NCBI GenBank assembly: GCA_035559235.1
Contig: DATMBM010000014.1
Location: 1 to 61,148, forward strand
Length of the DNA stretch: 61,148 nt
Direction of reading: 5' to 3'
Source: Minisyncoccota bacterium
GTDB lineage: Bacteria > Patescibacteriota > Minisyncoccia > Phycocordibacterales > UBA2100
The first letter of the stretch is position 1. Each line of letters begins with the position of its first letter. Shown one piece after another: positions 6,037 to 51,780 of this stretch. A program made the translations under genes and the position numbers. The notes under the pieces are model-generated. The model saw only the letters and a program-made list of their open reading frames with translations. It searched no databases and was not told where the DNA came from.

Positions 6037-6471
6037 AATAGAGCCAATTCTACCAGAAATTCAGGCAAAATCCAGATCGGCAATGTGTCTAAGTTTGCCC
6101 TCAAAAATCACAAATTGAGTATCCGCGCAAGCTCTAGCTCCTGCATGGATATTGATTTATATGCCCTGAGTCATTACAAAAATCGAAGAACACTTGACCT
6201 TCCCGTTAAGCAATCAAGACCTTTAAACCACTTTGAACACATGAAGGGGTGTTTTGAAATCGTGGCCTATGAGCATACGCTCGGCAGTGCAAAACGGGAG
6301 CATTTGTTGAATGCAAAACGAGCGACGCGAACGAAGCGCACGATGCCAGCGACATCCCCATCTTACAGGGTGTGGCGCGTTTTTCGTGCGGAAATGCACT
6401 GCACTGCTGATGTAAATTTGAGCACGCCAATTGCTTTGCGTCCACGCAGAGTGTGAGATAATTGCCGTGTT

Positions 6472-7143
6472 ATGCCCGAAGAGAATCCGCGCAGAAGGAA
6501 ATCTTCGATAGTGACGACCATGCTGGGCGTTGCGATCGTCGCTGCGTTTACGGCCGGCGGATACTATGCCTGGTCAAACTTTTTCCGACCTGAAGCAGCG
6601 CCCGAGCCGACGCCGCAGCCGCAGGAGCCCGTTGTGACGACGAGCACGTATGCGTCATCAACGATGGGTATTTCAGTCACGTATCCGCAAAGTTTTACCG
6701 TACAGGATCCGTACGCGTATACCGCGTTCGAAGGAAAACCGATTAGCGGCATACAATTTCGCGTGCCCGCGTCGATGACCGAAGGAACAAATCTCATAGC
6801 AGACAGCGGCGTTTCGATCGAACAGCTGCCTCGTGCGCGGAATTGCACTGGTGATATTTATCTGCTCGCGAACGTTCGTGCACAGGATGTCACCGACGGC
6901 GGAAGAACGTATTCGCTCGCAACGACAACCTCAACCACGACCGGTAACGTGTACGAGGAATTGGTATATGCAATTCCTGGCAGCTCGCCATGCACGGCAA
7001 TCCGCTACTTCCTCCATTCGAGCCAGATCGCCAATTTCGCGACGGGCACGCGGATGTTCGACCGTGCAGCGGTCATCGCGGCATTTGATGAAATTCGCCG
7101 CTCGCTTGTACTTCAGCCAACCTCGACGCAAACATCACAGTAA
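6472..7143 (+). CDS. membrane-anchored hypothetical protein
   Basis: 223-aa ORF with an N-terminal basic stretch plus TM (IVTTMLGVAIVAAFTAGGYYAW), a Pro-rich linker and a Thr/Ser-rich globular part. Confidence 0.6.
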   Translation: MPEENPRRRKSSIVTTMLGVAIVAAFTAGGYYAWSNFFRPEAAPEPTPQPQEPVVTTSTYASSTMGISVTYPQSFTVQDPYAYTAFEGKPISGIQFRVPASMTEGTNLIADSGVSIEQLPRARNCTGDIYLLANVRAQDVTDGGRTYSLATTTSTTTGNVYEELVYAIPGSSPCTAIRYFLHSSQIANFATGTRMFDRAAVIAAFDEIRRSLVLQPTSTQTSQ

Positions 7144-7241
7144 AAAAAACGGGAAACCCGTACCTCATAACGAGCTGGGGATTACTCAGTTTGCGCACGG
7201 GACAGGCTGTATACTGGGGCTATTACTCTTAGTCTCTTTGT

Positions 7242-7628
7242 ATGGAATTATCGCTCTTTTTAGCGAAGGTGATTGGCGTCGTCCTTATTGCCTTTTCTGC
7301 TGCCGGGCTCGCGCGGCCGCAGATTATTCATGGCGCGCTGCGTGACTTCAATCACGAATCGTTTTCACGCCTGGTCGTCGGCTGCCTCGCGATCGCGCTC
7401 GGCGCGGCGCTCGTCCTTTCCCACAACATCTGGGAGGTAAGCTGGCGCGGCTTGGTGACACTCTTCGGCTGGCTCACACTCGTCAAAGGCGGACTGTATT
7501 TGCTCGCTCCAAAGGCGCTGCACCAGCTCAGCACGTCGATGCTGCGCAACGAATCGCAGACTCGCGTATTTCTCTTCGTGTGCCTCGTTGTCGGTTTGTA
7601 CCTTGCGTACCACGGGTTCGGAATCTAA
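7242..7628 (+). CDS. small integral membrane protein (about 4 TM)
   Basis: 128-aa hydrophobic ORF. TATACT 27 nt upstream and a hairpin plus T5 terminator downstream. Confidence 0.6.
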   Translation: MELSLFLAKVIGVVLIAFSAAGLARPQIIHGALRDFNHESFSRLVVGCLAIALGAALVLSHNIWEVSWRGLVTLFGWLTLVKGGLYLLAPKALHQLSTSMLRNESQTRVFLFVCLVVGLYLAYHGFGI

Positions 7629-9238: not shown

Positions 9239-10384
9239 GTGTTTACATTCAAAATACTCAAGCAGTCGAAAAGAAGCCGCGCCCGCCTCGGCGTGATCCG
9301 TACACCGCACGGAGAAATTGAGACGCCGGCATTCGTCCCCGTCGCAACCCGCGGTACCGTCCGCACGCTCGATTCAGATGAAGTAGCAAACACGGGCTCC
9401 CAGGTCCTCATTTGCAACACGTTCCATTTGCACATCGCGCCGGGAGAAAAGGTCATCAAAAAGGCAGGTGGCTTGCACCGCTACATGCACTGGGGCGGTC
9501 CGCTCATGACCGACAGCGGCGGATTCCAGGTGTATAGCCTCGGTTTCGGAAGCGATCACGGAATCGGCAAGGTGCTCAAGGATGAACAGGAAAAAATACT
9601 GAAAGAGGGTTCGCAACCGCATGCCGTCAAAATAACCGACGACGGCGTGTTCTTCCGTTCCCCCATCGACGGCACACAGCTGTTTTTCTCGCCAAAGGAA
9701 TCGGTGAGGATCCAAGAGGCACTCGGCGCTGATATTATTTTCGCGTTTGACGAATGCCCGTCGCCGCTTGCCGACGAAGCGTACATGCGCACATCGCTCG
9801 AGAAGACGCATCGCTGGGCCGCAGAATCATTGCGCGCTCGCAAAAACGCCGGGAAACAAGCAATGTACGGTATCGTGCAAGGCGGCGTTTTCGCTTCGCT
9901 GCGGCTCGAGAGCGCGCGCGTCATCGGCGGGATGGATTTCGAGGGTTTCGGCTTTGGCGGCGAATTCGGGTACGACAAGCGTACGATGAAAAAAGTCATT
10001 GCCCAGGTAACCGACGAGTTGCCCGCGTACAAGCCGCGACACATCCTCGGTATCGGTCACCCGGAGGATTTTGCAATCATCGCATCGGCAGGCGGCGATA
10101 CATTTGACTGTATCGCACCGACACACTACGCGCGTCGCGGTATCGTCTTCACTTCAAAGGGCCGCATCGATGTACGCCGTGCACGATACGAGAAAGATGT
10201 TCACGTACCGCTCGATCGCTCGTGTCGTTGCGATGTGTGCAAGAACTATAGCCGCGGCTATGTAGCAAGTCTGATTCGAGCTAAAGAGCTGAGCGGCATG
10301 AAGCTTGCGACCTATCATAATCTCCACTACTTCAACACGCTCGCATCCACTATTCGGAAGCGGATAAAAAATGGTGATCTCTAA
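9239..10384 (+). CDS. tgt: queuine tRNA-ribosyltransferase (tRNA-guanine transglycosylase)
   Basis: GTG start. ARLGVIRTPHGEIETPAFVPV, TDSGGFQVYSL, FAFDECP and the Zn motif CRCDVCKNYSRGYV...H. Confidence 0.9.
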   Translation: MFTFKILKQSKRSRARLGVIRTPHGEIETPAFVPVATRGTVRTLDSDEVANTGSQVLICNTFHLHIAPGEKVIKKAGGLHRYMHWGGPLMTDSGGFQVYSLGFGSDHGIGKVLKDEQEKILKEGSQPHAVKITDDGVFFRSPIDGTQLFFSPKESVRIQEALGADIIFAFDECPSPLADEAYMRTSLEKTHRWAAESLRARKNAGKQAMYGIVQGGVFASLRLESARVIGGMDFEGFGFGGEFGYDKRTMKKVIAQVTDELPAYKPRHILGIGHPEDFAIIASAGGDTFDCIAPTHYARRGIVFTSKGRIDVRRARYEKDVHVPLDRSCRCDVCKNYSRGYVASLIRAKELSGMKLATYHNLHYFNTLASTIRKRIKNGDL

Positions 10385-17791: not shown

Positions 17792-19846
17792 ATGAATCTT
17801 CTCGGTACTTTCAGATACTCGCGAAGCGATGCGCTTAAAATGGCCGTGCTGTTTATCGCGTTTGTCATCGCGGCGGCGATCGGACGCACGCTCTTTACGA
17901 TGCCGGCGGTCATCCAGCCTGCGGCGGGCGTCGCGTTTGCAGGGCTCGTGCTTGGCGGAATCGCACTCTGGCCGGCCATCGTTGCCGCCAGCATTGTGAA
18001 TAGTCTGATTGTCGGGACTCCGCCGATTGTGACGTTGACCACGGCGGCCGCGCACGCACTGCATGCCATCATTGGCGCGTTTATCCTACGTTCAGGCGGC
18101 TTCGACCCGGTTTTCCGGCGCGTTCGCGACATGTTCCTCTTCATAGCGGTTGCGCTCAGTGTTTCCACAATCCTTCCGACCCTCGGGATTCTGGGCATCA
18201 TGCTCCACAACGCTCTCTTGGATCCTGACTGGCCGATGAGGGCAACCTGGATTTCGTGGTGGGTCGGCACAATGATTGGGGATCTCATTCTCGCATCCGC
18301 TGTCATCCGCTACTTCGCAAAGCCGCATTTCACGCGGACTTCCAAAGAGATAATCGAACTCTCGGTCGCGTTTGCGGCGCTCGGCCTCTTCACCTATCTT
18401 GTCTACTGGGTCGACGTGTCGAGCACAGCTCGTGGCATATACCTACTGCTATATCTCGTTTCGTTCGTGTGGTTTTCGCTGCGTCTTGGAAACCGATTCA
18501 CCCTGATCGCATTTGCGCTTTCAAGCGTCGTCGCTGTGACGGGCACGCTGTATGGAAATGTCCCGTCTGAAGCGGCGCTGCCGCAAAGGATCATTACGCT
18601 CGAATTCTTCCTTGCAACGCTCGCCGTCATCTTCTACCTTTTCACGACGGTCGTCGAGGAGCGCAAGCGCAGCGCCCGGCAGCTGCAAATGCAATTAAAT
18701 CGCGTCAACAATTTGCTCGAAGAATCAAAACGACAAGACAACGCGAAGAGCGAATTTATCGCCGTGTTTGCGCACGAATTGCGCAATCCGCTCGCTCCAA
18801 TCGTGAGTTCCGTCGAGCTGTTGAAATTGCGCTGGGGAGCGCACCCGGAAATCGCACCGATAGTCGAGACGATCGAAGATCGCACGCGGACGATCGTGAG
18901 ACTCCTCGATGATCTACTCGATGTCTCCCGCATTTCCCGCCAGAGCTTCAAGCTAAAGGAGGAGAAATTTGACGTGCGAGAACGCATCGAAGATGCGACG
19001 CGCGCGATGCGTCCGCTCGTCCAGGAACACGGGCTCTCTCTCACCACATCGATGCCAAACCATCCCGTATATCTATTTGCCGATTCAGTTCGCGTTGAGC
19101 AGATCATTGGGAACCTTCTCATGAATGCAATCAAGTACACGCCGTCCGGCGGGCATATCATGCTTGTCGTCCGCGAAGATGGAGACGTGGCGGAAATTCG
19201 CGTGAAAGATACCGGCGTCGGAATACCGAAAAAATTGTTGCGGAAGATTTTTGAGCCGTTTTCGCATCTCGGTGCGGAACGACAACAGCATAGAAAAATC
19301 CGTACAGGACTGGGCATTGGGCTATGGCTCACTGAGAATTTGGTCAACATGCATGGCGGTACGATCACCGCACGTAGTGACGGCCCCATGCTCGGCAGCG
19401 AATTCGTCGTGCGTCTGCCTCGATTATTAGAACAAGTCCCTGGTATGGAAGATTCGGCACAACCGGACGACTCGGCCAATCCGATACGCACCGGTACCCT
19501 CAAGGTCCTCGTCGTCGATGACAACGAAGCGGCGGCAAAAGGTCTTGGCACACTCCTCGAATACAGCGGCAACACAGTCGCGCTTGCGTATGGAGGCGCT
19601 GAGGCCGTCAAGAAATCCCGCGAATTTTCTCCTGATGCGGTCGTCCTCGACATCGGGCTTCCCGACGTGAATGGATACGAAGTTGCGCAGATGCTGCGAG
19701 AAGAAGGATATCGCGGAAAAATCGTCGCGCTCACCGGATACGGCCAGGAAGAAGATAAACGGAAGGCCCGGGAAGCCGGCTTCGATGACCACCTGACGAA
19801 GCCTGTGGGCATCGCCGATTTACAAGCCGTGTTGGTACAGGCGTAA
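17792..19846 (+). CDS. hybrid sensor histidine kinase: MASE1-like membrane domain, HisKA, HATPase_c, receiver
   Basis: ~300 aa polytopic N-terminus, H-box FIAVFAHELRNPLAP, N/G boxes (LLMNAIKYTP; DTGVGIP; GLGIGL), C-terminal REC (VLVVDDNEAA...VLDIGLPDVNG...TKP). Confidence 0.9.
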   Translation: MNLLGTFRYSRSDALKMAVLFIAFVIAAAIGRTLFTMPAVIQPAAGVAFAGLVLGGIALWPAIVAASIVNSLIVGTPPIVTLTTAAAHALHAIIGAFILRSGGFDPVFRRVRDMFLFIAVALSVSTILPTLGILGIMLHNALLDPDWPMRATWISWWVGTMIGDLILASAVIRYFAKPHFTRTSKEIIELSVAFAALGLFTYLVYWVDVSSTARGIYLLLYLVSFVWFSLRLGNRFTLIAFALSSVVAVTGTLYGNVPSEAALPQRIITLEFFLATLAVIFYLFTTVVEERKRSARQLQMQLNRVNNLLEESKRQDNAKSEFIAVFAHELRNPLAPIVSSVELLKLRWGAHPEIAPIVETIEDRTRTIVRLLDDLLDVSRISRQSFKLKEEKFDVRERIEDATRAMRPLVQEHGLSLTTSMPNHPVYLFADSVRVEQIIGNLLMNAIKYTPSGGHIMLVVREDGDVAEIRVKDTGVGIPKKLLRKIFEPFSHLGAERQQHRKIRTGLGIGLWLTENLVNMHGGTITARSDGPMLGSEFVVRLPRLLEQVPGMEDSAQPDDSANPIRTGTLKVLVVDDNEAAAKGLGTLLEYSGNTVALAYGGAEAVKKSREFSPDAVVLDIGLPDVNGYEVAQMLREEGYRGKIVALTGYGQEEDKRKAREAGFDDHLTKPVGIADLQAVLVQA

Positions 19847-25861: not shown

Positions 25862-26024
25862 ACGATTATTTTTGAATATGGCTAAACCCGCGCTGAGCGC
25901 GATTACTCCCATTCTCTACGGTGGCGATTAAAGGGGGATGAAGCTATGCGCATGGTGGCACTTACCGCAAATACATTTGGTATACTTACAGTGCGGCCGT
26001 CTAGGGAAGCGGATCAGTGTCGCA

Positions 26025-28091
26025 ATGAGTCAGACAGTACGCGCGTATGCCCTCTTTGCACTCCAGTTCCTGGTAGTGTTTGGGGTTTATTTTTATACAG
26101 CACGTTGGGGTTTGAACCTCAGCGCCATCAATGATTTTGCCGCACTCGTGTGGCCTGCGACCGGTATCGCGATCGCTGCGGTATACGTGCTCGGGTACCG
26201 GATCGCACCGGCGATCGCGCTTGCGGCATTCGCGGTCAATTATCTTATCGGCGCTCCGATTCTTGCCGCGACGGCGATCGGCATCGGCAATTCGCTCGAG
26301 GCGGCGATCGGCGTATGGCTTCTGCGCAGTTTCGGTTTCAATCCGCTGTTCAGCCGGCTCGTTGATAGTTTTGTATTCATCGCGGTCGCGATTTCAGCCA
26401 CCGTCATTAGTGCGACCATTGGAACGACGACGCTTGGCCTCACCGCACTGCTGTCGGCAGCGGATGTGCCGGTGACCTGGCTGGCGTGGTGGGTCGGAGA
26501 CACCATCAGCGCCCTTATCCTTACGCCGTTCCTCATCCGCTGGCTCGCGACCCCGATTACTCGATCGCGACGAACGGTTGCGCAGCTGCTTGAGGGTCTC
26601 GCATTCTTCACAGCGCTGATCGCGCTGACGCTTCTTGTGTTCTGGGATCCGATACCGGGGCTGCACGAAATCATGCACCCGTACATGGTTTTCGTGCCCC
26701 TCACGTGGGGGGCATTGCGTGTAGGGCCTCGCGCAATGACGCTCGCGATTGCGACGGTCGCAGCGCTAGCCACCTTCGGCACCCTTGCCGGAACCGGACC
26801 GTTCGCGTTTATCGACGGCGGCCGGGAGCTGTTCCTGTTCGCCCTCTTCCTCTCCACCGTAGCATTCATCTTCCTGCTCTTCGTAACGGCAGTGGAAGAG
26901 CGCAAAAACGCTTCAAAACGCCTTGAGGAAAATATTGTGTCCCTCCAGGAAGACGTTGAGGAAATATCCGCCGCCGACCAGGCGAAGAACGAATTTATCG
27001 CGACGCTTTCGCACGAGCTGCGCAACCCGCTCGCGCCCATTCTCTCATCGCTTGAAATTATCCGGATGGGGCGCTTGCAAGAGCGCGATGCGAGGCCACT
27101 GATTGAAACGACGTATGAAAACGTCATGCGCATGACACGCCTTCTTGATGACCTCCTCGATGTCGCACGCATTTCCCGTAAGCAGTTCACGCTGCAGATG
27201 AAAACCGCGAGCCTTAAATCAATCGTGCAGCATGCGACAGCGATGGCGCAGCCACTTATGCAAAAGCACGGCCATTCGTTCTCATCCGCGCTGCCACGTG
27301 ACGACATACAATTACACGCCGACCAACTGCGCATCGAGCAGGTTATCGTTAACCTGCTCAATAATGCCGCAAAATATACGCCGCCTGGCGGCACTATTTC
27401 CCTTGCGGCACATGCGTCACGCGACGGTGCAGAAATACGCGTGCGTGACAACGGCATCGGCATTTCAAAGCACTTGCTCGAAAAAATATTTGAGCCGTTT
27501 AAACGATTCGGTAACGGGCAGCGCGTCGCGGAAAGTGCAGGCCTCGGCATCGGCCTCTCGCTGGCGAAACGTCTCGTCGAACTGCACGGCGGCAGAATCG
27601 AGGCGCGAAGCGATGGTCCCGGGAAAGGAAGTGAATTCGTCGTGTGGCTTCCGGTCGCTGATGCCCCGCTCTTATTGCCCACCGCTTCCGAATCGCAAGA
27701 CGTGCGAACCCCCGCTGAGCCGTCCCGCAAAAAAGAGCGGAAACGGGTGCTTATCGTCGATGACAATAAGGACGCCGCCGAAGGCATCGCGCGACTTTTA
27801 AACCACAGCGGCCATGAGGCACATGTCGCGCTCGACGGCGCGCACGCGCTCGCAACACTTGCCAATTTCCGTCCCGACGTCATCTTTCTCGACATCCAGC
27901 TACCGGGCGAGAGCGGCTACGACCTGCTCCGCACGATCAGAAATTACCTCGATCCGGCACCCTATTTCGTCGCGCTCACCGGCTTTGGACAGGAAGAGGA
28001 CAAAGAAAAAGCGCGCGAAGCAGGTTTTGACGGTTTCTTGACAAAGCCGGTTTCCATCGCCGATTTGGAAAAAGTCTTATCCCATTCCTGA
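26025..28091 (+). CDS. hybrid sensor histidine kinase, paralog of 17792-19846 (MASE1-like, HisKA, HATPase_c, receiver)
   Basis: Same architecture. H-box FIATLSHELRNPLAP, REC VLIVDDNKDAA...FLDIQLPGESG...TKP. Start set at MSQTVRAY. Confidence 0.9.
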   Translation: MSQTVRAYALFALQFLVVFGVYFYTARWGLNLSAINDFAALVWPATGIAIAAVYVLGYRIAPAIALAAFAVNYLIGAPILAATAIGIGNSLEAAIGVWLLRSFGFNPLFSRLVDSFVFIAVAISATVISATIGTTTLGLTALLSAADVPVTWLAWWVGDTISALILTPFLIRWLATPITRSRRTVAQLLEGLAFFTALIALTLLVFWDPIPGLHEIMHPYMVFVPLTWGALRVGPRAMTLAIATVAALATFGTLAGTGPFAFIDGGRELFLFALFLSTVAFIFLLFVTAVEERKNASKRLEENIVSLQEDVEEISAADQAKNEFIATLSHELRNPLAPILSSLEIIRMGRLQERDARPLIETTYENVMRMTRLLDDLLDVARISRKQFTLQMKTASLKSIVQHATAMAQPLMQKHGHSFSSALPRDDIQLHADQLRIEQVIVNLLNNAAKYTPPGGTISLAAHASRDGAEIRVRDNGIGISKHLLEKIFEPFKRFGNGQRVAESAGLGIGLSLAKRLVELHGGRIEARSDGPGKGSEFVVWLPVADAPLLLPTASESQDVRTPAEPSRKKERKRVLIVDDNKDAAEGIARLLNHSGHEAHVALDGAHALATLANFRPDVIFLDIQLPGESGYDLLRTIRNYLDPAPYFVALTGFGQEEDKEKAREAGFDGFLTKPVSIADLEKVLSHS

Positions 28092-43923: not shown

Positions 43924-45054
43924 CTACCGCACTTGCAGTTCGCGTTTGTCGTATTTCTCGCCAATCGGCGAAATAACGACCTTGCTCCGCTCGCTCGCAA
44001 AGATCGTGCCCGCACGAATACCTCCGAAGGGATGCTCTCCCGTTTCGAGAAGCAATAGTGCGTCATCTACGTGCCGCTCCGGAACAAAGAGCGCGAACCC
44101 GCCGCCCATGTTGAAATCTGCATACATGTGGCGCAACGAGACGCCGCCGTGTTCGGCGATGAATTCCAGCGCCGTCGGCACCTGAGGTACCGTATCGATC
44201 GCATATGTAAACTTCTCCGGCGCCCGCATCAATTTCCGACAACCGTGGCCGGTGATGTTGACGCAGTAATGGATTTCGATGCCGCGCTCCAAGCACTCTC
44301 CGATGTAACGCACGTAGATGTGCGTCGGATCGAGCAGCGCCTCGCCGTACATCCGCCCGTCAGGCATCTTTGTCAGGTACCCATTCGGAAGTTTGTTGGC
44401 GATATCCCGAGCTAGTGTGAGGCCGTTGGCATGGATGCCCGAGCTTTCGAGGAGGATGATGATGGCATCACCATGTTGAATGTTCCGCTTGATGAGACGC
44501 TCCTTCGGCATGATGATCCCGTCGGCCGATCCAGAGATAACGGCCTTCCCGGGCACGATCAAATCCCGCAGCGCAGGAGTTTCGCCACCGCCCCAGCACG
44601 TACCGGCGAGATCACAGGCGCGTCTCCAACCTTCGATCAGTTCTTTGTTCCGTTTCTCCCATTTGAACCAGTCCGATTGCGCGACCACGAGGTGCATCAT
44701 CATGGTAACCGGCAACACGCCGAGCGTGATCATGTCGTTGAAGACCATGGCCGCGCAGCATTGTGCGACATTGTCGTACTTCGGGGTTGATAGTGATTTT
44801 CCGACTTCCTCTACCGTACGCAAAGCCTCTGCAAATCTGTCCGCCGCGTCATTTTTCGTACCCAGGTTCTCATTCACCTGCCCGTGAAAATGATCCGAGT
44901 ATTCGACGAGAAACACGCTCTCTCCTTGCGTCCACTCGACAACCTTCAAGCCGAGCCTCGCGATGTTGCGATCGGTCTCCTGGGCTTTCGCAAGCGCGAG
45001 CCGCTTGAAAGCGTCCAGCGTCCCATACCCAACGTCGTAGCGATTGGTCGTCAT
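43924..45054 (-). CDS. PurM/AIR-synthase-related superfamily protein (divergent)
   Basis: Start at MTTNRYD (GGAG SD 9 nt upstream). GGGETPAL...SGSADGII...ESSGIHANGLTLARDI resembles PurM-type N and C domains. Confidence 0.65.
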   Translation of the reverse strand: MTTNRYDVGYGTLDAFKRLALAKAQETDRNIARLGLKVVEWTQGESVFLVEYSDHFHGQVNENLGTKNDAADRFAEALRTVEEVGKSLSTPKYDNVAQCCAAMVFNDMITLGVLPVTMMMHLVVAQSDWFKWEKRNKELIEGWRRACDLAGTCWGGGETPALRDLIVPGKAVISGSADGIIMPKERLIKRNIQHGDAIIILLESSGIHANGLTLARDIANKLPNGYLTKMPDGRMYGEALLDPTHIYVRYIGECLERGIEIHYCVNITGHGCRKLMRAPEKFTYAIDTVPQVPTALEFIAEHGGVSLRHMYADFNMGGGFALFVPERHVDDALLLLETGEHPFGGIRAGTIFASERSKVVISPIGEKYDKRELQVR

Positions 45055-45118
45055 CACTTTTTCTCCAATGAACAAAAACCAGAGGTGTGTCCCCTGGCCT
45101 AGGGGTAAGAATACCCGT

Positions 45119-45604
45119 TTATCGTTGCAAATCTACCCAGCGGTACGGCAGTCCTTCGTAGGCACGCTCCTCCTCAAATACCTTTTTTTTGAACTGGTCG
45201 TACGGCGGGAAAAAAGAGTCGGCGTCTTTGGCATCGTCGATAAGCGTCAAGTACAGCTTGTCCGTGTATGGAAGGCCGAGCTCGTAGATTTGCCCTCCGC
45301 CTATGATAAAAATTTCTTCGTTTCCCGGCTTAATCCGCGCCAGCTCGAGCGCCTCCTCCATCGACGCAACGGCGAGAGTGCCTTCGGCCGACCACCCTCT
45401 GTCACGGGTAATCACGATGTTTGTTCGATCGGGCAACGGCCGCCCGATTGACTCGTATGTTTTCCTCCCCATGATGACGGGATGTCCTTTCGTGATGCCT
45501 CGAAACCGCTTCAGGTCATCGGGGATTTTCCACAGGAGGTCGTTTCCCTTCCCCAGCTCGCGGTTGCGCCCGATCGCCGCGATCATGCTGATGCAACGCT
45601 GCAT
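45119..45604 (-). CDS. folA: dihydrofolate reductase
   Basis: ISMIAAIGRNRELGKGNDLLWKIPDDLKRFRGITKGHPVIMGRKTYESIGRPLPDRTNIVITRD. The start abuts the stop of the CofE-like gene. Confidence 0.85.
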   Translation of the reverse strand: MQRCISMIAAIGRNRELGKGNDLLWKIPDDLKRFRGITKGHPVIMGRKTYESIGRPLPDRTNIVITRDRGWSAEGTLAVASMEEALELARIKPGNEEIFIIGGGQIYELGLPYTDKLYLTLIDDAKDADSFFPPYDQFKKKVFEEERAYEGLPYRWVDLQR

Positions 45605-45605
45605 A

Positions 45606-46295
45606 CTAGTTGAGTGTATCAAACAACGGCCGATACAGATCATCCTCGATGTCGATATGGAGTTCCGTTCGGTCGATCGTGTCCACGAACTCAACAGGCG
45701 CGTCTTCGATGATGCACAGGGGCCGTTGCTCCGCACCCTCTCCCATTTCAAGAACGGCCGCTGTCGCCAGGCTATCGGCAACATCCGTTCGGGCAAGTTT
45801 TAGAATGCGCCCGAAAATATCGGGTGTTCCGCGATAGTCGCGTACGCCCTTGATTCCCGCATACCCAAGCGCCACCCCGACAATCCCCGCGCGAAGTGGT
45901 AAAACACGGCTATCAGTGATCACGACCCCGAATTTTGTTAGGCCGAAACGGCGCACAAGTGCGCTTCGCAATGCCTCGGCGGCGGCAAAACTGTCTTTCG
46001 GCAGGAGCACGAGTTTGCCGTCCGCATTTGATTCGTCCACTCCCGCCGATGACATAACAGTCCCGTCCTTAATGGTAAGCCATGTGTATTTTGTGCGTAT
46101 TGCGACGTCGCTTTCCTGTTTGATGATCTCGTCGCGACGCGCCACATCGGCAGTGCGCTTTTCCGATAGTGCGACGATTTTCGACGTGACGACCAGAATT
46201 GTCGCATCAGAAATTGCCGGAACATGTTCAACAACGAACGACTCGAGGTTCTCGCCTTCTTTAAAAATCCGCGTGTGGATGGGCTTCACCTGCAT
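45606..46295 (-). CDS. CofE-like gamma-glutamyl ligase family protein (F420-0:glutamate ligase fold)
   Basis: VKPIHTRIF..GENL..FV....I.D.TILVVTSKIVALSEKR...GVDESNADGKLVLLP pattern typical of the CofE family. Confidence 0.7.
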   Translation of the reverse strand: MQVKPIHTRIFKEGENLESFVVEHVPAISDATILVVTSKIVALSEKRTADVARRDEIIKQESDVAIRTKYTWLTIKDGTVMSSAGVDESNADGKLVLLPKDSFAAAEALRSALVRRFGLTKFGVVITDSRVLPLRAGIVGVALGYAGIKGVRDYRGTPDIFGRILKLARTDVADSLATAAVLEMGEGAEQRPLCIIEDAPVEFVDTIDRTELHIDIEDDLYRPLFDTLN

Positions 46296-46625: not shown

Positions 46626-47258
46626 CTAGCCCGCCTTGTAGCTGGACTTCAACTTCCGAATATCCCCGCTGAAAACCAGCTTCATCTCCTTCGCCTTTTC
46701 CCTTGCCCCTTTCTCCACGACGTCCTTCATATGCCATCGACTCTTTCTCGCTTCTATCGGGTGGGTCAGCTGCTCAAACACGATTTGGCAGATGCGCTCC
46801 CCCGGATGCAGTTCGATGACTTGTGAATGGGTGTTATTCCGGATAGGCAACGTCAGCGGTCCTTCATAGCCGGAATCAATGATTCCGGTAAGGTCCACTG
46901 AGAGCCCCTTGCGATTGACGGATGACCGAGGATACAAAACGGCCATTAAATCGGCGGGTACTTTAATGGTCTCGTATGTCGAGACGAGCACATATTCGTG
47001 GGGCAGCAAATCGAACGACTGTCCTTGCTCAAGCTCGATGACGTCGAAGTACTCCGGTCCATGGTCGCGCAGCGGATCGATCATCATCGCCTCCCGGCCG
47101 CGCGCCGTCATCTGCCATGCTTTCGGAATTAAAAACGTAAACCCCAGCCGCAGGTCAACCGCATGCGCCTGCAACTGAAACGTGTCCAGCCCGGGCGTAA
47201 AAACAATCTCCTTGTCCTTCACCCGCTGCACAATCTCATCCTTCGTGAGTACTGCCAT
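46626..47258 (-). CDS. dCTP deaminase/dUTPase-fold (Dcd/Dut superfamily) protein, atypical active site
   Basis: AVDLRLG, YPRSSVNRKGL, GIIDSGYEGPLTLPIRNN, PGERICQIVF. A basic C-terminal extension. Confidence 0.75.
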   Translation of the reverse strand: MAVLTKDEIVQRVKDKEIVFTPGLDTFQLQAHAVDLRLGFTFLIPKAWQMTARGREAMMIDPLRDHGPEYFDVIELEQGQSFDLLPHEYVLVSTYETIKVPADLMAVLYPRSSVNRKGLSVDLTGIIDSGYEGPLTLPIRNNTHSQVIELHPGERICQIVFEQLTHPIEARKSRWHMKDVVEKGAREKAKEMKLVFSGDIRKLKSSYKAG

Positions 47259-47264
47259 ATGACT

Positions 47265-47270
47265 ATTCTA
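47265..47270 (-). promoter_or_regulatory. -10 box TAGAAT (uses the ThyA-like stop codon) 6 nt upstream of the Dcd-like ATG
   Basis: The minus strand reads TTG TAGAAT AGTCAT ATG. Confidence 0.45.
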
Positions 47271-48104
47271 CAAGACAATTTGTAATCCCTTGATCGCATC
47301 CTGCGGCTTGTATTGGCCGGTAAATGCGGCGACGATCTGCTCCACAAGCTTTACGTCTTTTTTTTCCGCCCGATCAAAGGAGTTTTTTGGGAGCGTAACC
47401 CTGATGGGCTTATGCGTCGCCTTACGCTTCAACATCTCCCGGACGGCTGCATACTGGTTGTCATAGACGTGCGCATTGGAGATCGAGTGGCTGTAAACCC
47501 CCGGCTTGACGCCGAGTTTCTGTGCCAGCATGAGTTGGAGCAGAGCGAATCCGGCCACGTCCGCGGGGAATCCCAAAACCATATCATTCGAGCGAACGAT
47601 ATTGTGGAGATTCAGACGCCCGTTGATGATGTTGACGGTGAATGAATACGGACACGGCACGTTTTTCCGGTTAGTGACGCCAAGGCCGTCACCCGCGGGA
47701 TCCCATGTGATGATGACGCCGTGCCGAGACGTCGGATCTTGCTTCAAGTGCTTCACCAAAAGCCCGAGCTGGTCGCGTCCGAAGTGCTTGCGCCAGCGAT
47801 AGCCGTACGCAACGGTGACAACGTCCGCAGGATTCGTGAAGACATCCCAGATCTTCGTGTATTCGCGCAAAAAATCGGCCGGTTTTCTCGCGCCGGAAAC
47901 AAACCAGATCTGCTCTGCCACAAACATTTTCACCGGCAATTTCCGCAACGTAAGCAGTGGAAAACCTTCCTTTTCGATATCGAGTGAGAAATGCATCCCG
48001 GGAATCGCTTTTACTTCGTGTCCCGTTCGCTTGTTAACTTCGGCAACTCCGTCTTTGACAATACGCCTTAACATGTCTTGATAGACGGAATCGAAACGCG
48101 CCAT
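47268..48104 (-). CDS. thymidylate synthase (ThyA, PF00303-type) family enzyme with Asp at the Asn177-equivalent position; possible dCMP methylase/hydroxymethylase
   Basis: KRTGHEV, GFPLLTLRK, EQIWFVSG, YGYRWR, DPTSRHGVIITWD, VPCPYSF, RSNDMVLGFPADVAGFALL, NAHVY. Collinear with E. coli ThyA. Confidence 0.85.
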   Translation of the reverse strand: MARFDSVYQDMLRRIVKDGVAEVNKRTGHEVKAIPGMHFSLDIEKEGFPLLTLRKLPVKMFVAEQIWFVSGARKPADFLREYTKIWDVFTNPADVVTVAYGYRWRKHFGRDQLGLLVKHLKQDPTSRHGVIITWDPAGDGLGVTNRKNVPCPYSFTVNIINGRLNLHNIVRSNDMVLGFPADVAGFALLQLMLAQKLGVKPGVYSHSISNAHVYDNQYAAVREMLKRKATHKPIRVTLPKNSFDRAEKKDVKLVEQIVAAFTGQYKPQDAIKGLQIVL

Positions 48105-48172: not shown

Positions 48173-48655
48173 ATGACTTCGATTACGTATCCATACCTGC
48201 CTGGGAACCGCCAGTTCCGCTATGTACCGGAAGACAACGAGTATATGCTCGAGGCGCGATCGTACGCTCTCGCGCACTCGCTCGACGACGCGGTCAAAAC
48301 CGGATCAATTATCGTCAAGGACGGCGTCATCATCGGCCGCGGCGCCAACGGAAGTGACTACCACAAGACCCACCAATGCGAACGCGTGAGGCGCGGCATC
48401 CCGACTGGACAGGGCTATGAACTCTGCGAAGGGTGCCACCCGAAAAACCACAGCGAGCCACGCGCCATTGCCGATGCGCTAAAGAACGACGGCGATACTC
48501 GCGGTGCCGACCTCTACTTGTGGGGACACTGGTGGGCATGCGAGCCCTGCTGGAAAGCCATTACTGAAGCGGGCATCTCGAACGTCTACCTGATGGAGGG
48601 TAGCGAGCGGCTTTTTAACAGGGAGCATCCGGAAAACGTCCTCGGAAAATGGTGA
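48173..48655 (+). CDS. deoxycytidylate (dCMP) deaminase, zinc-dependent CDA fold
   Basis: CERVRRGIPTGQGYELCEGCHPKNHSEPRAI (HxE) and WACEPCWKAI (PCxxC-like). Confidence 0.85.
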   Translation: MTSITYPYLPGNRQFRYVPEDNEYMLEARSYALAHSLDDAVKTGSIIVKDGVIIGRGANGSDYHKTHQCERVRRGIPTGQGYELCEGCHPKNHSEPRAIADALKNDGDTRGADLYLWGHWWACEPCWKAITEAGISNVYLMEGSERLFNREHPENVLGKW

Positions 48656-48746: not shown

Positions 48747-49082
48747 ATGGACTTTGACGAGTACGAGAACGTAGCACGCGGGACCGCAACGTTCGATACA
48801 AAACCATTTGAGTACCAACTGATGTATCTCGCTCTCGGCATCGCGGGGGAAAGCGGAGAGATCGCGGAAAAAGTAAAAAAGATCATGCGCAACGACAACG
48901 GAACGGTTTCCGACGAAAAAAGAGAATTGCTCAAGGCTGAGATTGGCGATGTCCTGTGGTACCTTTCCCAACTTTCCCGCGTTCTCGGTTTTTCATTTTC
49001 CGAGACCGCGCGCGCAAACATCGATAAGCTCAAGGACCGCGCCGAACGCGGCGTGATAAAAAGCGCCGGGGATAATCGATAG
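48747..49082 (+). CDS. MazG-like all-alpha nucleoside triphosphate pyrophosphohydrolase
   Basis: LALGIAGESGEIAEKVKK...LKAEIGDVLWYLSQL (EExxE/D metal motifs of the MazG family). Confidence 0.8.
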   Translation: MDFDEYENVARGTATFDTKPFEYQLMYLALGIAGESGEIAEKVKKIMRNDNGTVSDEKRELLKAEIGDVLWYLSQLSRVLGFSFSETARANIDKLKDRAERGVIKSAGDNR

Positions 49083-49134: not shown

Positions 49135-50403
49135 ATGGAACTCTACCCATACGTCAAAAAACAAGACAAGCAGGTGTACCAAGCGCTTATCGGCGAGGAA
49201 AAGCGTCAGGCGGAAGGACTTGAACTGATCCCTTCTGAAAATTACGTCTCGCGCGCCGTCCGTGAGGCGAATTTCTCCAATCTCACCAATAAATATTCCG
49301 AAGGATACCCCGGAAAGCGCTACTACGGCGGCCAGCACTACACGGATATCGTCGAAAATATCGCGCGTGATCGCGCGAAGAAACTTTTTGGCGCGAAATT
49401 CGCAAACGTCCAGCCGCATGCCGGCGCTCCAGCGAATGTCGCGATGTATTTCGCGCTCCTTGAGCCGGGCGACACGATTCTCGGCATGGATCTTTCGCAC
49501 GGCGGCCATCTCACGCACGGCCACCCCGTCACGTACCTCACGAAAATCTTCAAATTCGTCCGATACAAGATGAAAAATGCCGAAACCGGCGAGATGGATT
49601 ACGACGAAATGCGCGAGGTCGCGCTGCGTGAAAAGCCGAAAATCATCCTTGCCGGCTATAGCGCATATCCACGCGAACTCGATTACGGGAAGATGGTCGA
49701 AATCGCGCGCGAAGTCGGCGCACTTGCGGTGATGGATATCGCGCACATCGCAGGCCTTATTGCGGGGAAAGTGGTGAAGAACCCGTTCGATTATGGCTTC
49801 GACATCATGACCACGACAACGCATAAGACGCTGCGCGGCCCACGCGGCGGCATGATCCTCACGCGCGACAATGAGGAGATCGCACGCAAAATCGACAAGG
49901 CTGTCTTCCCGGGCTTCCAGGGCGGTCCATTAATGAATGCGATTGCCGCGAAGGCTGTTTGCTTCGGCGAGGCATTGAAGCCCTCATTCAAAACCTACGC
50001 AAAGCAGGTTCTTAAGAACGCCAAAGTGATGGAGGCGGTATTTAAAAAACACGGGGTCCGCATGATTACGGGCGGCACCAGCAATCACCTTATCCTCGCC
50101 GACGTGTATGGCTCGCTTGGGATCACGGGCCATGAGGCGGAGACCGTTCTCGACAAAGTCGGCATCACGCTCAATAAAAACGCGATTGCTGATGATCCGC
50201 GCAAGCCGATGGATCCAAGCGGCATCCGCTTTGGCACGCCGGCCATCACGACGCGAAAATTCAAGGAAAAAGAGTGCGCAAAGGTGGCGGAATGGATGAT
50301 CGCCGCGCTGAAGAACAAGGACAACAAAAAGGAATTGAAAAACATACGAGCGGAGGTCCAAAAGCTTTGCAAACGTTTTCCCATCCCGCCTCGATTCGTG
50401 TAG
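49135..50403 (+). CDS. glyA: serine hydroxymethyltransferase
   Basis: LELIPSENY, YPGKRYYGG, SHGGHLTHG, TTTTHKTLRGPRGG (PLP lysine). Confidence 0.95.
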   Translation: MELYPYVKKQDKQVYQALIGEEKRQAEGLELIPSENYVSRAVREANFSNLTNKYSEGYPGKRYYGGQHYTDIVENIARDRAKKLFGAKFANVQPHAGAPANVAMYFALLEPGDTILGMDLSHGGHLTHGHPVTYLTKIFKFVRYKMKNAETGEMDYDEMREVALREKPKIILAGYSAYPRELDYGKMVEIAREVGALAVMDIAHIAGLIAGKVVKNPFDYGFDIMTTTTHKTLRGPRGGMILTRDNEEIARKIDKAVFPGFQGGPLMNAIAAKAVCFGEALKPSFKTYAKQVLKNAKVMEAVFKKHGVRMITGGTSNHLILADVYGSLGITGHEAETVLDKVGITLNKNAIADDPRKPMDPSGIRFGTPAITTRKFKEKECAKVAEWMIAALKNKDNKKELKNIRAEVQKLCKRFPIPPRFV

Positions 50404-50412
50404 GATTACAGG

Positions 50413-51780
50413 ATGTTCTTCGGCTTCGATCTCACGCAGGCAATCGAAGTCCTCGGATACCCGGGGATTTTTGCGATCATTCTTGCCGAATCCGGCATCT
50501 TCTTCGGCGTCTCGCTGCCGGGCGGCTCCCTCCTCTTTACCGCCGGACTTCTCGCATCGCAGGGATTCCTCAACATCTACATTTTGCTTGCCGTCGTCAT
50601 CGTTGCGGCAGTCCTCGGCGATTCGATCGGTTACTGGTTCGGTGCATGGGTTGGTCCCGCGCTCTGGCGCCGACCGGACGGCCGGTTTTACAAAAAGCGC
50701 TATTTGGAACAGACGCGAGTCTTTTTCGACCAGCATGGCGCGCGCACCATCTTTCTCGCGCGCTTCATCCCGATCATCCGCACGTTCGCCCCGATCCTCG
50801 CCGGCGTCGCGAAAATGGAGTATCGCACGTTCTTCTTCTACAACATGCTCGGTGCCTTCGTTTGGGGCGGCGGTTTCGTACTCGCCGGTTATCTGCTTGG
50901 CGAAGCGATACCCGGGATCAAGGAATACTTGGAATACGCGATTCTCGCTATCATCGTTGTCACGACAATCCCCTTTCTTCTCCATATGAGGGCTGCGCAG
51001 CAAGTTGCGAGCGCCGGAAAGGTCCTGCCGCGGGCCGTCATTTTCGATCTCGACGATACGCTCGCTGAAAGCTACACGCCTCCGCGCGAGGAGATTCTTG
51101 GAAAACTCGCGGCACTCTCGCGCTCGACCGTTGTCGCGATCATGACGGGGGCGGCATACGACCGGGTCGAGCGAGATTTGATGCAGCGCTTCAAGGGAAC
51201 CCGTGGCGGCAACATGTACGTGTTTTCGGACAGCGCCGCACGCTGCTACACGTTTGAAAAGGACGATTGGCGCGAGGTTTACAATTTCTCGCTCGCGCCC
51301 GAAGACCGGCAGCGCATCGTCGCCGCAATCAGAGACGCCGTCCGTACGACCGGGATTTTCGACGGAGGCGAGGATCATTCGCGCATCATCGACCGCGAGA
51401 CGTCGGTCGCCTTCGCGGCGCTTGCTCCCGATGCGAGCCAGGAAGACAAGCGTGCGTGGGACCCAGACGGTTCAAAGCGGATGAAGCTGATCGATGAGTT
51501 GCGGGCCCGGGTTCCCGAATTTGAAATTTTTATCGGCGGCAAATCGACTATCGACGTGACGCGGGAAGGCATAACAAAAGAATACGGCGTGAAATGGCTT
51601 TCGAAGGAACTCAGCGTCGAGGCGCGTGATATGCTCTTTGTCGGCGACGGTTTTTACGAGGGCGGCAATGATGCGGTCGTGATCCCGACGGGCATCCAGA
51701 CTCGGGAAACGACGGGTCCTGCGGAAACGCTCCGCATCATCGATGAGTTGCTGGAGCAGTTCGGCTCAAAAGAGGCCTAG
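50413..51780 (+). CDS. fusion protein: DedA/VTT membrane domain (N) plus HAD-IIB phosphatase-like domain (C)
   Basis: N-terminus GYPGIFAIILAESGIFFGVSLPGGSLLFTAG...LARFIPIIRTFAPILAG. C-terminus VIFDLDDTLAES...FVGDGFYEGGNDAVV. The C-domain is paralogous to 41461-42183. Confidence 0.75.
   Translation: MFFGFDLTQAIEVLGYPGIFAIILAESGIFFGVSLPGGSLLFTAGLLASQGFLNIYILLAVVIVAAVLGDSIGYWFGAWVGPALWRRPDGRFYKKRYLEQTRVFFDQHGARTIFLARFIPIIRTFAPILAGVAKMEYRTFFFYNMLGAFVWGGGFVLAGYLLGEAIPGIKEYLEYAILAIIVVTTIPFLLHMRAAQQVASAGKVLPRAVIFDLDDTLAESYTPPREEILGKLAALSRSTVVAIMTGAAYDRVERDLMQRFKGTRGGNMYVFSDSAARCYTFEKDDWREVYNFSLAPEDRQRIVAAIRDAVRTTGIFDGGEDHSRIIDRETSVAFAALAPDASQEDKRAWDPDGSKRMKLIDELRARVPEFEIFIGGKSTIDVTREGITKEYGVKWLSKELSVEARDMLFVGDGFYEGGNDAVVIPTGIQTRETTGPAETLRIIDELLEQFGSKEA

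Follow-up and report, generated by a model that had tools for sequence, protein, structure and literature searches.

A patescibacterial ThyA homologue with aspartate at the base-reading position: a probable dCMP methylase within a candidate chromosomal route to thymidylate through 5-methyl-dCMP

The 61,148-nucleotide contig DATMBM010000014.1 from the Minisyncoccota bacterium assembly GCA_035559235.1 (Patescibacteriota; Minisyncoccia; Phycocordibacterales; UBA2100) was analysed over its full length, here called the window. It is a chromosomal fragment of a bacterium of the candidate phyla radiation (CPR) with genes for a valyl-tRNA synthetase, tRNA-Val, tRNA-Phe, sensor kinases and cell-envelope glycosyltransferases. 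On the minus strand lies an open reading frame (ORF) for a ThyA-family enzyme. A preliminary description, made from the sequence alone, had pointed out an Asp where thymidylate synthase (TS) has the uracil-reading Asn177. It had predicted a cytosine-nucleotide C5 methylase or hydroxymethylase. Here we examined the residues of the enzyme, its relatives and its gene neighbourhood. The enzyme is quite probably a methylase of deoxycytidine monophosphate (dCMP), and together with its neighbours it may well supply deoxythymidine monophosphate (dTMP) by way of 5-methyl-dCMP. The ORF and its diagnostic residues are located as follows.

47268..48104, minus strand: ThyA-family enzyme, 278 amino acids, with the signature D177/P147/F83/N143 in E. 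coli numbering (PF00303 match, alignments, placement in the Xp12 clade, discriminating positions).
47559..47561, minus strand: Asp182, codon GAC, which takes the place of Asn177 in E. coli ThyA (pyrimidine specificity; the Asn of TS reads O4/N3-H of uracil); from alignments, present in 81 of 81 orthologues.
47649..47663, minus strand: catalytic-loop motif N148-V-P-C151-P152; NVPCP in 79 of 81 orthologues.
47838..47840, minus strand: Phe89, where E. coli ThyA has Trp83 (folate-site gate); from the alignment.

Membership in the ThyA family, as assigned in the preliminary description, was confirmed by a match to PF00303 (Thymidylat_synt) of 183.2 bits over residues 7-254 (cut-off 24.3). With solved TS structures the ORF reached 126 bits at most, and it stayed far under the cut-offs of the NF0024xx equivalogs (e.g. 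146 vs 327). Its nearest database relatives come from metagenome-assembled genomes of Kaiserbacteria, Paceibacterota and Parcubacteria. The query segment GFPADVAGFALL was set onto its TS counterpart by phmmer with five solved TS structures; over the stretch from RSxD to GxPxN these alignments had no gap. The register was the same when the query was aligned with E. coli ThyA by MAFFT. Because both procedures left the core ungapped, Asp182 is the equivalent of Asn177. Thus, the gap-free core alignment with E. coli ThyA and the placement of Asp rather than Asn at this site were correct. The same holds for the exchanges of RSCD to RSND and of PCH to PCP, which are seen in the alignment, and for the T4 gp42 motif RSNDVVFGFRND: the gp42 sequence used was 100% identical to the deposited T4 records.

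The remaining catalytic residues are retained, among them those named initially. Apart from Cys151 (C146 in E. coli), which is the nucleophile, these are Glu64 (E58), Tyr100 (Y94), Arg171 (R166), Ser172 (S167), Asp174 (D169), the folate- and phosphate-binding arginines, with Arg26 (R21) and Arg127 (R126) among the conserved positions, and His212/Tyr214 (H207/Y209) of the H-x-Y motif. The C-terminal tail is TS-like, with ...IKGLQIVL aligned with ...IKAPVAI of E. coli. Close to the nucleophile, Pro152 and Asn148 stand at the positions of His147 and Leu143; T4 dCMP hydroxymethylase (dCH, gp42) has Asp145 at the latter. All four canonical TS residues, Asn177, His147, Trp83 and Leu143, are therefore replaced in the query. 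A further substitution is His128 for E. coli Arg127.

Is this combination of residues conserved? Orthologues from 81 species-level loci of GTDB genomes, all Patescibacteria, were compared; in this set neighbouring genes were counted within 5 kb. The profile for the genome scan was an alignment of seven closer sequences. The gene was found in 208 GTDB species genomes, including a complete 859-kb chromosome; the complete Kaiserbacteria chromosome CP066682.1 is among the gene-bearing genomes. Asp177 was present in 81 of 81 orthologues, the PCP motif in 80, and 119 of the 120 nearest database proteins had Asp at 177. When 50%-identity cluster representatives were searched exhaustively with HMMER, 134 clusters were obtained at E <= 1e-30. 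The first ~79 representatives were D-type, and the canonical N177/H147/W83 did not occur before a rank of about 80. Of the best 150 representatives ~125 had F83 and P (or V/L/I) at 147 together with D177, and in these D177 co-varied with P147, F83 and N143. Differential conservation between 109 D-type and 18 N-type representatives identified 177, 143, 147 and 83 as the top discriminating positions; in the sampled Asn clade His147, Trp83 and Leu143 were conserved to at least 89-94%. Given its occurrence in relatives, orthologues and representatives alike, the Asp at 177 is not a product of chance. Positions 177 and 147 are also those which separated C-modified from unmodified phage contigs in the MetaGPA study.

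Three proteins of unusual architecture are recorded here as separate observations. In P0147 (432 amino acids) an HNH endonuclease domain lies on the N-terminal side of a D-type ThyA, perhaps as the remnant of a homing endonuclease or because the gene was mis-called. In P0269 (501 amino acids) a guanylate-kinase-like domain is fused to a canonical Asn-type TS. P0123 (466 amino acids, L117 8001-9401) is an Asp-type ThyA (ThyA-D) of the CPR kind with 49% identity, the RSND/PCP/D signature and an Arg/Ala-rich N-terminal extension of 190 amino acids. Its 47-kb contig also has a MurD-like ligase and may stem from a non-CPR cellular host of a D-type enzyme.

In phage genomes the query matched best with ThyA homologues from Xanthomonas phage Xp12, from phages related to it and from Rhodobacter phages (37-40% identity, E 1e-44 to 1e-53), not with thymidylate synthases of the T4 type. 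BLASTP scores of the query were 191 bits with RcRudolph, 167 with Xp12, 99 with E. coli ThyA and 45 with T4 dCMP hydroxymethylase. A neighbour-joining tree placed it inside the D clade together with Xp12, and the Asn clade stood apart. Xp12 is the best-scoring characterised relative (39% identity), and it has, as has RcRudolph, the identical signature D177, P147, F83 and N143. In Xp12 DNA 5-methylcytosine (5mC) takes the place of all cytosine. According to a 2024 preprint (mSCD-B5 study) the Xp12 ThyA homologue yields 5-methyldeoxycytidine (5mdC) in E. coli when combined with T4 dNMP kinase, and five of seven metagenomic D-type homologues did so as well.

The exchange at the base-reading position has been engineered before. 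Mutagenesis has established that replacement of Asn by Asp alone switches the substrate of TS to dCMP (1992 reports of Hardy with Nalivaika and of Liu with Santi). The engineered enzymes (E. coli N177D, L. casei N229D) share fold, exchange and predicted reaction with the query; however, the natural enzyme adds H147P, W83F, L143N and R127H, which are absent from the point mutants. With canonical ThyA (EC 2.1.1.45) it has in common the PF00303 fold, the catalytic residues, the C-terminal tail and linkage to genes of dihydrofolate reductase (DHFR) and serine hydroxymethyltransferase (SHMT), yet it differs at the four positions named above and scores low with the E. coli enzyme. Asp177, the cytosine-type ('C') state of positions 147, 83 and 143 and the placement in the Xp12 clade all agree with the initial suggestion that the enzyme probably does not convert deoxyuridine monophosphate (dUMP) to dTMP.

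Which cytosine nucleotide is the probable substrate, and is it methylated or hydroxymethylated? A paper on the T4 dCH ternary complex describes the hydroxymethylase signature: Asp or Glu at Cys-3 (D145, involved in water activation; D145N is inactive), Ser or Thr at two positions before the catalytic Tyr, and lack of the TS C-terminal tail. With gp42 the query shares the RSND motif, the base-reading Asp and a predicted deoxyribose specificity, but it has Asn148 at Cys-3, the sequence Val98-Ala99-Tyr100, and the tail which gp42 lacks. Ribose preference is ascribed in the MilA paper to Ala/Lys at TS Ser167/Arg126. MilA accordingly has Ala176 and Lys133; the Ser172 and Arg127 of the query are those of deoxy-specific enzymes. 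MilA and BcmA resemble it in the cytosine-reading carboxylate at the equivalent position; unlike theirs, the surroundings of the query gene are not those of an antibiotic cluster.

Because the hydroxymethylase and CMP signatures are absent, the tail is TS-like, and DHFR and SHMT genes adjoin, a methylase which produces dihydrofolate (DHF) appears most likely. The DHFR linkage implies DHF production since reductive methylation alone yields DHF. With methylenetetrahydrofolate (CH2-THF) as cosubstrate the most likely reaction would be: dCMP + CH2-THF -> 5-methyl-dCMP + DHF. We regard the assignment as dCMP methylase as quite probable. Of the two activities originally proposed, methylation is favoured over hydroxymethylation in view of Asn148, Val98, the tail and DHFR, and as the cytosine nucleotide dCMP is favoured over CMP in view of Ser172 and Arg127. 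The gene probably does not encode an enzyme of DNA hypermodification or of antibiotic biosynthesis.

The genes around thyA-D in the window form a module, with the following members.

46626..47258, minus strand: dCTP-deaminase (DCD)-family protein, 210 amino acids, 9 nt downstream of thyA (PF22769/TIGR02274); 78 of 81 loci.
46845-46847, minus strand: Pro138 of this protein, which replaces the catalytic Glu (E. coli E138, 'TLE' motif); 'TLPIRN' versus 'TLELxN'.
48173..48655, plus strand: dCMP-deaminase-family protein, 160 amino acids (PF00383); adjoins thyA in 80 of 81 loci, divergent, 68-bp spacer.
48747..49082, plus strand: MazG-like NTP pyrophosphatase, 111 amino acids (PF03819, phrog_229); 24 of 81 loci.
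49135..50403, plus strand: SHMT, regenerates CH2-THF (PF00464, 496 bits); 62 of 81 loci.
45119..45604, minus strand: DHFR, recycles DHF (PF00186, 166 bits; start inferred at ATG 45604); 59 of 81 loci.
45606..46295, minus strand: F420-ligase-family protein, 'putative folate metabolism gamma-glutamate ligase' (PF01996; TIGR04132 198 bits, under the cut-off of 350).

Gene order is nearly fixed over the 81 loci. In addition to the members listed, a thymidylate kinase is found in 34 and a classical dUTPase in eight loci. A contig end cuts the single locus that has no deaminase; of the three loci in which the DCD-family gene is missing, at least one is cut in this way too. The deaminase has intact motifs (HSE at 48449-48457, CEPC at 48539-48550), and orthologous deaminases retain the catalytic H(A/S)E and CxxC motifs; a spacer of ~70 bp to thyA is typical over the loci. 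Its nearest solved structures are phage dCMP deaminases. We predict that it converts 5-methyl-dCMP to dTMP.

The DCD-like protein clears the TIGR02274 (dCTP_deam) cut-off with 114 versus 92.8. The catalytic Glu is kept in E. coli DCD, in DCD-DUT from M. tuberculosis, in Bacillus DCD and in SIRV1 dUTPase; here it is Pro, and Pro was found in every scorable CPR orthologue. A conserved C-terminal extension of ~40 amino acids (...SRWHxKDVVxKG...EMKLVFSGD) follows. With Pro for Glu the protein should be unable to deaminate by the known mechanism. Most simply, it would be a dNTP pyrophosphatase that is inactive as a deaminase, and the gene context suggests dCTP -> dCMP as its step. Public labels of Pro-type proteins as 'dCTP deaminase' are then probably wrong. 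A scan of IMG/VR with the DCD-like protein found no relative.

The MazG-like gene is replaced by a classical dUTPase at some loci. Its product may remove dUTP or 5-methyl-dCTP, or it may supply dCMP. The F420-ligase-family gene is situated between the DCD-like gene and DHFR; it is near the module in only eight of 81 loci, and its product is likely an accessory of the folate cycle. Directly downstream of DHFR an AIR-synthase-related (PurM/ThiL/SelD-like) protein is encoded (43924-45075, minus strand; weak AIRS and AIRS_C matches), and in a few further loci such a gene recurs, 3-8 kb away from thyA. A DedA/VTT membrane domain is fused to a HAD/phosphomannomutase-like domain in a protein of 455 amino acids (50413-51780, plus strand; L005 4657-6018). 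The gene of this fusion adjoins SHMT in at least two genomes.

The setting of the module is cellular, with tRNA synthetases, L11/NusG/SecE and sensor kinases on the flanks. An origin as a prophage or island was considered and rejected because of the tRNA synthetase, ribosomal and NusG/SecE flanks and the conservation in more than 200 species. Among the flanking genes of the window are two paralogous hybrid sensor kinases of the architecture MASE1-HisKA-HATPase-REC (17792-19846 and 25938-28091, both plus strand). A similar kinase stands directly after DHFR in the locus L005, an unusually elaborate signalling equipment for a reduced CPR genome.

Related modules are present in phages. The gene order is ThyA-D, deaminase, DHFR in Xp12 and MazG, ThyA-D, deaminase, DHFR in RcRudolph; about 20 IMG/VR contigs have MazG, ThyA-D and deaminase in this order, with or without DHFR. 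In the mSCD-B5 preprint 70% of the deaminases on C-modified contigs were located within 3 kb of a ThyA homologue, compared with 6% of those on unmodified ones. Many of the ThyA-linked deaminases favoured 5mC substrates, and the 5-methyl-dC pool was proposed as a source of thymidylate. The Xp12 and CPR modules thus have in common an adjoining PF00383 deaminase, DHFR and an NTP pyrophosphatase. They differ in several respects. The CPR module is chromosomal, vertically conserved, flanked by housekeeping genes and present in more than 200 bacterial species; its deaminase gene is transcribed divergently; the Glu-less DCD-family protein stands where the phages have MazG; SHMT and thymidylate kinase are added; and its product is probably dTMP for ordinary DNA, not 5mC DNA.

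Gene fusions were observed too, among the D-type representatives. In P0141 (433 amino acids, L116 8001-9302) a PF00383 dCMP-deaminase domain is fused to a D177-type ThyA. The contig L116 is unrelated and phage-like (ribonucleotide reductase, VanY-type lysin). Adjoining P0141, a DCD-family gene (9335-9973) encodes a protein 38% identical to that of the window, with Pro at the Glu position. An order with the deaminase acting first makes no sense in such a fusion, since it would deliver dUMP, which would be unsuited to an Asp enzyme. P0141 is a candidate for a single-polypeptide dCMP-to-dTMP enzyme. In P0160 (424 amino acids) a PRA-PH/MazG-like pyrophosphatase domain is fused to a D177-type ThyA, which suggests channelling of dCTP -> dCMP -> 5-methyl-dCMP. 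Among viral proteins the one closest to the CPR ThyA-D, at 55% identity, is encoded in L089 (IMGVR_UViG_3300025858_000007, 5616-7250). There, the deaminase gene is directly upstream of ThyA-D and a HAD gene follows; genes for a YqaJ recombinase, an RNA ligase and a dUTPase are present as well. L089 could represent a CPR phage, or a donor or recipient of the module. The phage gene orders, the fusions and the neighbours in L116 and L089 indicate that pyrophosphatase, D-type ThyA and deaminase are a recurring functional unit.

Residues, clade placement, conservation of gene order and fusions were observed directly; from these each bacterial enzymatic activity in the following scheme was inferred. 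dCTP would be hydrolysed to dCMP by the Glu-less DCD-like protein, or by MazG where present. ThyA-D would then methylate dCMP to 5-methyl-dCMP, with CH2-THF as donor of carbon and hydride and with release of DHF; this step is suggested by the signature residues and the clade shared with the experimentally validated Xp12 enzyme. The divergently transcribed deaminase would convert 5-methyl-dCMP to dTMP, for which the strict adjacency, the gene fusions and the phage precedent argue. Thymidylate kinase would phosphorylate dTMP, and DHFR and SHMT would close the folate cycle. Dut or MazG would keep dUTP, perhaps also 5-methyl-dCTP, from DNA. As a best explanation the module is a conserved chromosomal unit of Paceibacteria-type CPR in which thymidylate would be made without a dUMP intermediate. 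We rate the entire pathway dCTP -> dCMP -> 5-methyl-dCMP -> dTMP, as a cellular housekeeping route, as somewhat more probable than its negation. The gene had been called housekeeping-looking in the preliminary description, with the reservation that it probably does not form dTMP from dUMP. A role in dTMP supply is probably kept, by way of 5-methyl-dCMP and the adjoining deaminase.

Alternatively, the module could make 5-methyl-dCTP for incorporation into DNA, an Xp12-like replacement of cytosine, and the deaminase would divert a part to thymidylate. This is partly compatible with the proposed dTMP detour, and we consider it unlikely. In its favour, the core of the module (NTP pyrophosphatase, D-type ThyA, PF00383 deaminase and DHFR) is that of Xp12-like phages, whose DNA is fully 5mC. 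T4 gp56 depletes dCTP, and a dCTP-hydrolysing DCD-like protein would do so too. However, no dedicated 5-methyl-dCMP kinase was seen in the cluster; the linked thymidylate kinase keeps the L(Y/F)xAxR and DRY/F motifs, i.e. ordinary thymidylate-kinase motifs. In E. coli the entry of 5mdC into DNA depended on co-expression of the promiscuous T4 gp1 kinase (mSCD-B5 preprint). MazG-like pyrophosphatases in the 24 clusters also speak against it, as the human MazG relative DCTPP1 is reported to remove 5-methyl-dCTP. A weak argument is that many genomes of the group have been assembled and no global modification was reported in the literature searched. The CpG observed/expected ratio of the window is 1.46 at a GC content of 55.8%, but dinucleotide statistics are uninformative here because a global replacement is not context-specific. 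The strongest form of the idea, that in Paceibacteria-type CPR genomes cytosine is largely or wholly replaced by 5mC before replication, a state known so far only from viruses, seems to us more doubtful still.

Several findings weigh against the detour through 5-methyl-dCMP. The residues of ThyA aside, the module (deaminase, dUTPase-family protein, TS, DHFR, SHMT and thymidylate kinase) is the textbook dUMP route. The ORF passes the TIGR03284 thymidylate synthase equivalog (122.7 vs a cut-off of 108.35); this narrow pass and the Pfam Thymidylat_synt match explain why public records name the orthologues 'thymidylate synthase'. The CPR deaminase is of another PF00383 subtype than the Xp12 and mSCD-B5 deaminases, and the substrate of the B5 deaminase is a triphosphate, not 5-methyl-dCMP (mSCD-B5 preprint). 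The nearest characterised relatives of the DCD-like protein include archaeal-virus dUTPases, so it could hydrolyse dUTP instead of dCTP. Since SIRV1 dUTPase keeps the Glu, loss of Glu alone cannot separate a dUTPase from a dCTPase. Lastly, an AlphaFold2 model, built from a shallow alignment of 24 sequences at least 74% identical, does not confirm the pocket. Its mean pLDDT was 75, but values fell under 50 at residues 90-108 and 132-151, the catalytic loop included, and because of this low confidence it was not used for the active site. With Foldseek it matched only ordinary TS structures in the PDB (TM 0.6-0.7), which did not discriminate. A D-clade structure was not among the PDB matches of Foldseek or of phmmer to solved structures.

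The enzyme could also be a genuine dUMP -> dTMP synthase despite the Asp, e.g. with a protonated Asp or with compensating changes. The deaminase would then make dUMP from dCMP, the DCD-like protein would be a dUTPase, as archaeal-type dUTPases are DCD-family members, and DHFR and SHMT would recycle folate. The operon, including thymidylate kinase and, in some genomes, a classical Dut, fits canonical dTMP synthesis, the TIGR03284 cut-off is cleared, and the remaining catalytic residues are conserved. Against this stand the switch to dCMP by the Asn to Asp change alone in the two 1992 reports, the full D/P/F/N signature shared with 5mdC-making enzymes, and the invariance of Asp over 81 species. 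The query is far closer to the 5mdC-making enzymes than to any Asn-type TS. Furthermore, several loci hold a separate Dut or MazG besides the DCD-like gene, so that in sub-megabase genomes the DCD-like protein, as a plain dUTPase, would duplicate a function already present. We judge a dUMP-dependent synthase to be improbable, about as much so as 5-methyl-dCTP synthesis for DNA or by a trace more. A hydroxymethylase of the T4 gp42 or MilA kind, acting on dCMP or CMP, which would make 5-hydroxymethyl-(d)CMP and for which Asp177 and the RSND motif common to query and gp42 could be adduced, is highly improbable in view of 45 bits to gp42, Asn at Cys-3 as in the inactive T4 D145N, no Ser/Thr at Tyr-2, the TS-type tail, the DHFR linkage and, as to ribose preference, Ser172 and Arg127 in place of Ala and Lys.

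Thymidylate synthesis is held to start from dUMP in all cells, via ThyA or ThyX. The CPR ThyA-D would be a new cellular member of the Xp12-type family, and the thymidylate route to which it would belong has so far been described in phages only. A literature search on thymidylate synthase, dCMP deaminase or 5-methyl-dCMP in CPR or Patescibacteria brought up no description of this feature, which by itself is no proof of novelty; one paper handles the patescibacterial thyA as an ordinary TS. If the proposed detour is true, these bacteria would be the first known cells whose thymidylate is formed without dUMP, by deamination of 5-methyl-dCMP. This would be a third cellular route to dTMP besides ThyA and ThyX, without a dUMP/dUTP pool. 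Hundreds of annotations as 'thymidylate synthase' and 'dCTP deaminase' would be wrong, and a nucleotide-modification module would have been exchanged between phages and cells. Enzymes of possible use as tools would be gained, namely new dCMP methylases, deaminases of 5mC nucleotides and a DCD-family pyrophosphatase without the Glu, and whether any cell has 5mC DNA derived from its nucleotide pool would become a directly testable question.

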